This document shows, in pieces, positions 48,548 to 49,774 of a stretch of DNA of 64,000 nt. The notes under the pieces are model-generated. The model had not been told where the DNA came from, did no database searches, and saw nothing but the letters and a program-made list of their open reading frames with translations. Both the position numbers and the translations under genes were made by a program. The stretch lies in NCBI RefSeq assembly GCF_030384885.1, contig NZ_CP128613.1. One strand, written 5' to 3'. The DNA comes from Escherichia coli. Its GTDB lineage: Bacteria; Pseudomonadota; Gammaproteobacteria; Enterobacterales; Enterobacteriaceae. The stretch's first letter is position 1. Each line of letters opens with the position of its first letter.

Positions 48548-49774
48548 ATGGGAATTAACGAAATCATCATGTACATCATGATGTTCTTTATGCTGATAGC
48601 TGCCGTAGACAGGATCCTGTCGCAGTTCGGCGGTTCTGCTCGTTTCCTCGGTAAGTTCGGTAAAAGTATCGAAGGATCAGGCGGTCAGTTCGAAGAAGGC
48701 TTTATGGCAATGGGCGCTCTGGGTCTGGCGATGGTCGGTATGACCGCGCTGGCACCGGTACTGGCCCACGTACTTGGGCCGGTGATTATCCCGGTTTACG
48801 AAATGCTCGGCGCAAACCCGTCAATGTTCGCCGGAACGCTGCTGGCGTGCGATATGGGCGGCTTCTTCCTCGCCAAAGAGCTGGCGGGCGGCGACGTAGC
48901 AGCGTGGCTATACTCTGGGTTAATTCTCGGGTCGATGATGGGGCCAACGATTGTGTTTTCCATTCCGGTGGCGCTCGGCATTATCGAACCTTCTGACCGT
49001 CGTTATCTGGCGCTCGGCGTGCTGGCGGGCATTGTTACCATTCCGATTGGCTGTATTGCTGGTAGTCTGGTGGCTATGTACTCCGGTGTGCAGATCAACG
49101 GTCAGCCGGTGGAATTCACCTTTGCCCTGATCCTGATGAACATGATCCCGGTACTTATCGTCGCGGTACTGGTGGCGCTGGGGCTGAAATTCATCCCGGA
49201 AAAAATGATCAACGGCTTCCAGATCTTCGCCAAGTTCCTCGTTGCATTGATCACCCTCGGTCTTGCCGCTGCGGTAGTGAAATTCCTCCTTGGCTGGGAA
49301 CTGATCCCCGGTCTGGATCCGATCTTTATGGCCCCTGGCGATAAACCCGGTGAAGTGATGCGCGCCATTGAAGTTATCGGTTCTATCTCCTGCGTTCTGT
49401 TAGGGGCGTATCCGATGGTGCTGCTGCTGACCCGCTAGTTTGAAAAACCGCTGATGAGCGTCGGTAAGGTGCTGAATATGAACAATATCGCGGCAGCTGG
49501 CATGGTGGCAACGCTTGCTAACAACATCCCGATGTTCGGCATGATGAAGCAGATGGATACCCGCGGCAAAGTGATCAACTGTGCCTTCGCCGTTTCCGCT
49601 GCTTTCGCCCTGGGTGACCACTTAGGCTTCGCCGCTGCCAACATGAACGCCATGATCTTCCCGATGATTGTCGGCAAGTTGATCGGCGGCGTAACGGCGA
49701 TTGGCGTGGCGATGATGCTGGTGCCAAAAGAAGACGCGACCGCGGCTAAAACCGAAGCGGAGGCACAATCGTGA
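48548..49774 (+). pseudogene. eutH: Ethanolamine permease EutH interrupted by an in-frame TAG at 49436..49438
   Basis: ORF-track pieces 48548..49438 and 49454..49774 are in the same frame; reading through gives ...MVLLLTR*FEKPLMSVGKV..., one continuous EutH-like membrane protein (~408 codons). Confidence 0.7.

Follow-up and report, generated by a model that had tools for sequence, protein, structure and literature searches.

A probable loss-of-function amber mutation in the ethanolamine permease gene eutH of a small Escherichia clone

Ethanolamine is a nitrogen source for enteric pathogens in the gut, and natural lesions are known in otherwise complete operons for its utilization (eut): the eut genes of host-restricted Salmonella serovars are degraded, and the eut operon of E. 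coli K-12 has an insertion of the prophage CPZ-55. The permease of the pathway, EutH (Pfam PF04346; NCBIfam NF011665), is encoded in the eut operon of Salmonella and E. coli by a gene of 408 codons located between eutG and eutA. At neutral pH ethanolamine diffuses across membranes, and EutH is required when the substrate is protonated under acid conditions (PMC7677406; PMC9397018). Since ethanolamine can enter unaided at neutral pH, the rest of the pathway could in principle still work without the permease. Furthermore, since EutH is needed mainly in acid, the phenotype of eutH loss alone is expected to be conditional, appearing at acid pH or low substrate. For the need for EutH under acid conditions, the review PMC9397018 cites Penrod et al. 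2004.

The stretch of DNA analyzed here, referred to as the window, comprises 64,000 nucleotides and contains the same gene in the same eutG–eutA position. In comparison with the known EutH, the window copy is cut at codon 297 by a TAG codon and also carries the substitution G173S, and its product corresponds to positions 1–296 of the family model. Unlike the K-12 prophage insertion and the decay in Salmonella, what the cryptic clade I clone carries is a nonsense point mutation affecting its permease gene, and in the window eutA and eutB are not separated by a prophage. K-12 strains presumably carry CPZ-55 between these two genes; in the record NZ_CP026085.1 (L002, labelled DH5alpha; positions 4224–7000) eutA adjoins eutB, and either this label or the presumed placement of the prophage may be wrong. 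The literature search turned up no paper on a eutH pseudogene, be it from E. coli or from cryptic clade I. The event itself is an ordinary point-nonsense pseudogene of a well known gene, specific to the clone.

The amber codon and its reproducibility

Translation of 48548–49774 yields a 408-codon EutH with only one internal stop, the TAG at codon 297, the letters around which are CTG ACC CGC TAG TTT GAA AAA CCG CTG ATG (coordinates are collected in Table 1). The open reading frames on either side, of 296 and 106 amino acids, share one frame. The position and frame of the amber codon reported in the initial annotation are therefore borne out by translation, and its reading of the two pieces as a single EutH-like protein is upheld by their end-to-end matches to the EutH models.

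Table 1. Features of the eut region, numbered from the first nucleotide of the window
Feature	Position	Strand	Remarks
eut operon, eutSPQT-pta(eutD)-MNEJGHABCLKR	40851–55735	+	Gene order from the 2013C-4282 annotation; ORFs checked in the window
eutH, probable pseudogene	48548–49774	+	408 codons, one in-frame stop
N-terminal ORF, truncated EutH	48548–49438	+	296 aa and stop
Codon 173, GGT to AGT (G173S)	49064–49066	+	Second derived change in eutH
Amber codon TAG, codon 297 (ancestral TGG)	49436–49438	+	G to A at 49437
C-terminal remnant ORF	49454–49774	+	106 aa from the ATG at codon 303; 98 aa from the ATG at 49478, codon 311
AAGG, Shine–Dalgarno-like motif, weak candidate	49466–49469	+	8 nt upstream of the ATG at 49478
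eutA	49771–51174	+	GTG start overlaps the eutH stop (GTGA); own strong Shine–Dalgarno sequence
eutB codon 332, CCA to TCA (P332S)	52179–52181	+	Private to the window strain

Strain 2013C-4282 has TGG (Trp) at codon 297, as does a distant record bearing the label DH5alpha; the peptide around it reads LLLTRWFEKPLM, and the change is therefore a G-to-A substitution at 49437 (TGG to TAG, W297*). The same change had been proposed in the initial annotation from the reference motif TRWFEKPLM, and comparison with reference EutH, which has TGG where the window has TAG, confirms it. Only one further base of eutH differs from 2013C-4282, a G-to-A change at 49064 resulting in G173S; comparison with a further outgroup places both changes in the lineage of the window. 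The ancestral EutH has exactly the sequence of the common allele WP_000512386.1, which is carried by 2013C-4282. Of the complete E. coli records, 5,217 contain a 100% match to a 33-mer that covers the site and has TGG, whereas the same 33-mer with TAG was matched at 100% in none of approximately 5,220 complete E. coli genomes, and a 61-mer across the site gave the same answer in this collection.

When the eutH segment was compared with 5,426 complete E. coli genomes, 2013C-4282 alone matched it at 99% or more. The whole window aligns to the chromosome of this strain with nine mismatches and no indels over 64,000 bases, the alignment wrapping around the origin of the record. Strain 2013C-4282 is an stx1-positive member of Escherichia cryptic clade I (PMC10100065). 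Judged by this nucleotide identity, the host of the window is itself a cryptic clade I strain and a close relative of 2013C-4282. The allele marks a small cryptic clade I clone related to a Shiga-toxin-positive human isolate, although its practical value is small.

As the difference is a specific derived substitution, chance is not at issue, and the question is whether the base call is correct. Had the A at 49437 been introduced by sequencing or assembly, the correct letter would be G and eutH would be intact; the window is a single assembly, and three of its further SNPs (52179, 57995 and 59140) are private to it and absent from the sister assemblies, so that some errors are possible. However, the exact 296-aa product including Ser173 is encoded on ten contigs of other assemblies, with the same allele found in NCBI assembly GCA_036346665.1 and in the Logan assemblies SRR18593988, SRR32234830 and SRR34489103, among others. 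The TAG is common to the assemblies labelled L006/L011, L007/L012, L008 and L013, and A at 49064 occurs together with A at 49437 in every retrieved assembly of the clone. These independently assembled NCBI and Logan contigs differ elsewhere in some cases, and at least three genotypes with the stop can be distinguished, namely the window with its three private SNPs, the L011/L012 type and L013, which has a 6.67-kb deletion. In addition, the sequence context, CCGCTAGTTTG, contains no homopolymer. Since A at 49437 is found in independent assemblies of differing genotype, the assembly error that the initial annotation had allowed for is excluded for practical purposes, and the chance that the base is miscalled is close to nil.

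The two possible intermediates between the ancestral and the window eutH were looked up by their exact sequences, and no full-length protein with Ser173 and Trp297 was present in the collection. A 296-aa product with Gly173 is on record, but none of the ten places shown for it is from the window clone. In eight of these ten the sequence stops at a contig end without a complete stop codon, and the remaining two (L014 and L019) have TGA on other haplotypes, the L019 sequence departing from eutH directly after its stop. Either of W297* and G173S may thus have arisen first.

One of these two places is a close parallel. ERR12666636 (L014), an E. coli haplotype with 37 eutH mismatches, has TGA at the same codon 297 (positions 949–951 of L014); the different stop codon and the different background indicate that this nonsense mutation arose independently. 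Furthermore, a 173-aa EutH fragment of Salmonella is encoded on 182 contigs, including a 4.68-Mb chromosome, with a break point different from that in the window. By comparison of these sequences, loss of eutH is a recurrent event, and the window allele is common to neither of the two.

Consequences of the stop for EutH and eutA

The ancestral protein matches the EutH equivalog model NF011665 over its full length (1–408 of 408) with 873 bits, the cut-off being 574, and the window pieces cover model positions 1–296 and 303–408. Pfam PF04346 describes one continuous domain at residues 3–391 of the ancestral EutH (model positions 1–351 of 351), and the stop falls inside this single domain. The gene is flanked by eutG and eutA in the window and in 2013C-4282 alike, and the frame of its EutH domain is interrupted by the TAG. 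In a set of 1.84 billion representative proteins, 1,356 homologues were identified, of which the 94 diverse ones of 340–440 aa were used. Continuity through residues 298–391 was found in 91 of the 94, so there is no natural gene boundary at the stop site. The possibility that reference EutH naturally ends at this point and is followed by a separate downstream gene is contradicted by these 91 proteins, and the family models, together with the 94 homologues, rule out a naturally split gene or a gene boundary at codon 297.

The position of Trp297 itself is variable among the homologues (Leu, Val, Ile). Downstream of the stop, Lys377 is invariant, and Met336, Gly340 and Phe361 each occur in 90% or more of the sequences in an alignment of 49. 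In an AlphaFold model of the ancestral EutH (pLDDT 93.9, pTM 0.93), the stop is located at the end of helix 273–297 and is followed by seven predicted helices, including a long helix at 367–391. Among the solved chains of the PDB there is no sequence match for EutH, and a Foldseek comparison of the model with the PDB gave no significant match (best E value 0.09, TM score below 0.26). The EutH family fold appears to have no solved representative, and the account of the parts that are lost is for this reason based entirely on the AlphaFold model.

Termination by release factor 1 after residue 296 would yield a 296-aa fragment. As it would lack the conserved C-terminal third of the protein, with the last seven predicted helices and the best-conserved motif of that part, the permease is most likely non-functional and eutH a pseudogene. 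The locus has the features of a nonsense pseudogene, namely a stop within the domain, a sense codon in relatives, a reproducible allele and the loss of conserved residues. It is therefore very probable that W297* is a genuine clone-specific nonsense mutation and that eutH is a loss-of-function pseudogene in this clone. The predicted phenotype is poor use of ethanolamine at acid pH.

The two pieces might, however, act together. A split permease would consist of the 296-aa fragment and a piece of 98–106 aa, made by reinitiation at the ATG at 49454 or 49478, which would assemble and provide some EutH activity. The AlphaFold model puts the break in a short turn that joins the predicted helices 273–297 and 299–308, the frame after the stop is open through to the normal stop, and the downstream ORF is predicted by gene callers, its 98-aa version from the ATG at 49478 being called as a gene in sister assemblies. 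A break in a turn between helices and an open downstream ORF are also found in split transporters of the LacY type, and LacY halves that are expressed separately can complement each other. Unlike these halves, the C-terminal piece in the window has a weak Shine–Dalgarno sequence, and no natural EutH among the 94 diverse homologues is split at codon 297. The initial annotation had placed the reinitiation at the Met six codons downstream of the stop; a Met is indeed encoded there, at codon 303, but it has no Shine–Dalgarno pairing (anti-Shine–Dalgarno energy +0.4 kcal/mol), and codon 311 is a better but modest candidate, with AAGG 8 nt upstream and an energy of −5.1 kcal/mol. Approximately 15% of the positions in the gene score as well as this site, which is also weaker than the native sites of eutH (−7.7 kcal/mol), eutA (−9.5 kcal/mol) and eutB (−6.1 kcal/mol). 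Moreover, a substitution such as G173S at a nearly invariant Gly would be unexpected in the clone if the function were maintained. Because the C-terminal ORF is open and has a modest Shine–Dalgarno sequence, a two-piece protein is possible; these sites argue weakly for reinitiation, and a functional split permease is not favoured and is considered very unlikely. For annotation, eutH should be treated here as a pseudogene, and the downstream ORF of 98–106 aa should not be called a separate gene.

Full-length EutH could also be restored in a sufficient amount by an amber suppressor tRNA encoded elsewhere in the genome or by near-cognate decoding. No tRNA genes are present in the 64-kb window, which is compatible with a suppressor located elsewhere. 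However, suppressor alleles are laboratory features that are rare in natural isolates, and the T that follows the stop codon favours efficient termination. The allele is also confined to one small clone, where it is accompanied by further damage to eut, and read-through at a useful level is accordingly given only a slight chance, below that of a split permease.

The effect of W297* on the downstream genes may extend beyond EutH itself. The distance from the premature stop to the eutA start is 332 nt, and the only mildly C-rich part of this stretch is located around 49564–49640, with approximately 35% C and 25% G. If the 332 nt were left untranslated, Rho-dependent polarity on eutA–eutR would be possible.

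The remaining eut genes and the mode of loss

The initial annotation described the stop as a single lesion in an otherwise intact operon. At the level of ORFs this holds, as all 16 other eut genes (eutS, eutP, eutQ, eutT, pta/eutD, eutM, eutN, eutE, eutJ, eutG, eutA, eutB, eutC, eutL, eutK and eutR) are open; it does not hold in view of G173S, of a missense change in eutB (P332S) and of a deletion from eutC to eutR in a sister assembly. Gly173 of EutH is present in 86 of the 94 diverse homologues and in at least 90% of the 49-sequence alignment, and G173S thus affects a nearly invariant position. Pro332 of EutB lies in the motif GFIGPEYLY, which is identical in the solved EutB proteins of E. 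coli (PDB entry 3abo) and Listeria (PDB entry 2qez). The window EutB protein with P332S is identical to WJS56863.1/WP_289787429.1, which is found on one NCBI contig, and the substitution could harm ethanolamine ammonia-lyase whether or not EutH is truncated. The sister assembly with the deletion is SRR32234830 (L013), which carries the same TAG/Ser173 allele and lacks 6.67 kb from eutC to just upstream of hemF (at 4256–4262 of that assembly, equivalent to approximately 52682 to approximately 59348 of the window). The genes lost are most of eutC, eutL, eutK, eutR, two genes for Sel1/TPR proteins and those for a Tli3 protein, a hypothetical protein and a DUF1963 protein.

The nine SNPs between the window and 2013C-4282 are located at 15317, 37395, 45130, 49064, 49437, 52179, 54917, 57995 and 59140. 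All nine alter a protein, eight being missense and one nonsense, and none is synonymous or intergenic. According to outgroups, four are derived in 2013C-4282 (hyfA K41N, tal D199E, eutE E76V and eutR E79K) and five in the lineage of the window (two in eutH and one each in eutB, a hypothetical gene and a DUF1963 gene). G173S, P332S of EutB and the sister deletion suggest, from a small number of events in these sequences, that the operon is under relaxed selection in the clone, and it may be starting to decay.

These changes could also have been selected, if inactivated uptake or catabolism of ethanolamine were advantageous for the clone and the eut region were hit repeatedly for this reason. 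All five changes of the window lineage are protein-altering and fall within 10.1 kb of the 64 kb, for which a simulation gave P of approximately 0.003, and eutC–eutR is deleted in the sister assembly. Such clustering is consistent with relaxed or inactivating selection on the region. The eut genes hold three of the five, which is not significant by a binomial estimate given that they make up 23% of the window. A further point in favour of selection is the independent TGA at the same codon in an unrelated E. coli haplotype; however, TGG is among the codons most easily turned into a stop, and recurrence is therefore expected. Furthermore, the four changes derived in 2013C-4282 are likewise all nonsynonymous, also outside eut, so that the preponderance of such changes reflects the very recent divergence and is not peculiar to eut. 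The events are very few, and neutral decay accounts for everything observed. Selected loss is consequently regarded as unlikely, and the same low standing applies to a sequence of events in which eut was dismantled under selection, with W297* first, followed by G173S, EutB P332S and the deletion of eutC–eutR in one isolate. As an alternative to such selected dismantling, a split permease is less likely still. If eut has been damaged repeatedly in one clone, this could bear on its niche, although neutral decay fits the data equally well; that so young a clone has gathered several protein-altering changes and a deletion in its eut operon is a mildly interesting thread.

Two features of the noncoding and flanking DNA were observed alongside these genes. 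The spacer between eutG and eutH (48330–48517) contains two copies of an 88-nt element of the REP/BIME type, which are 92% alike. One copy scores as Rfam naRNA4 (48386–48467), and a second naRNA4 match is located at 23582–23658 on the minus strand. Between eutR and hemF, a 3.6-kb insert at 55843–59450 encodes two Sel1/TPR proteins, a Tli3-family type VI secretion system immunity protein, a hypothetical protein and a DUF1963 protein. This insert is absent from the L014 background, in which eutR abuts hemF, and two of the window-private SNPs lie inside it.
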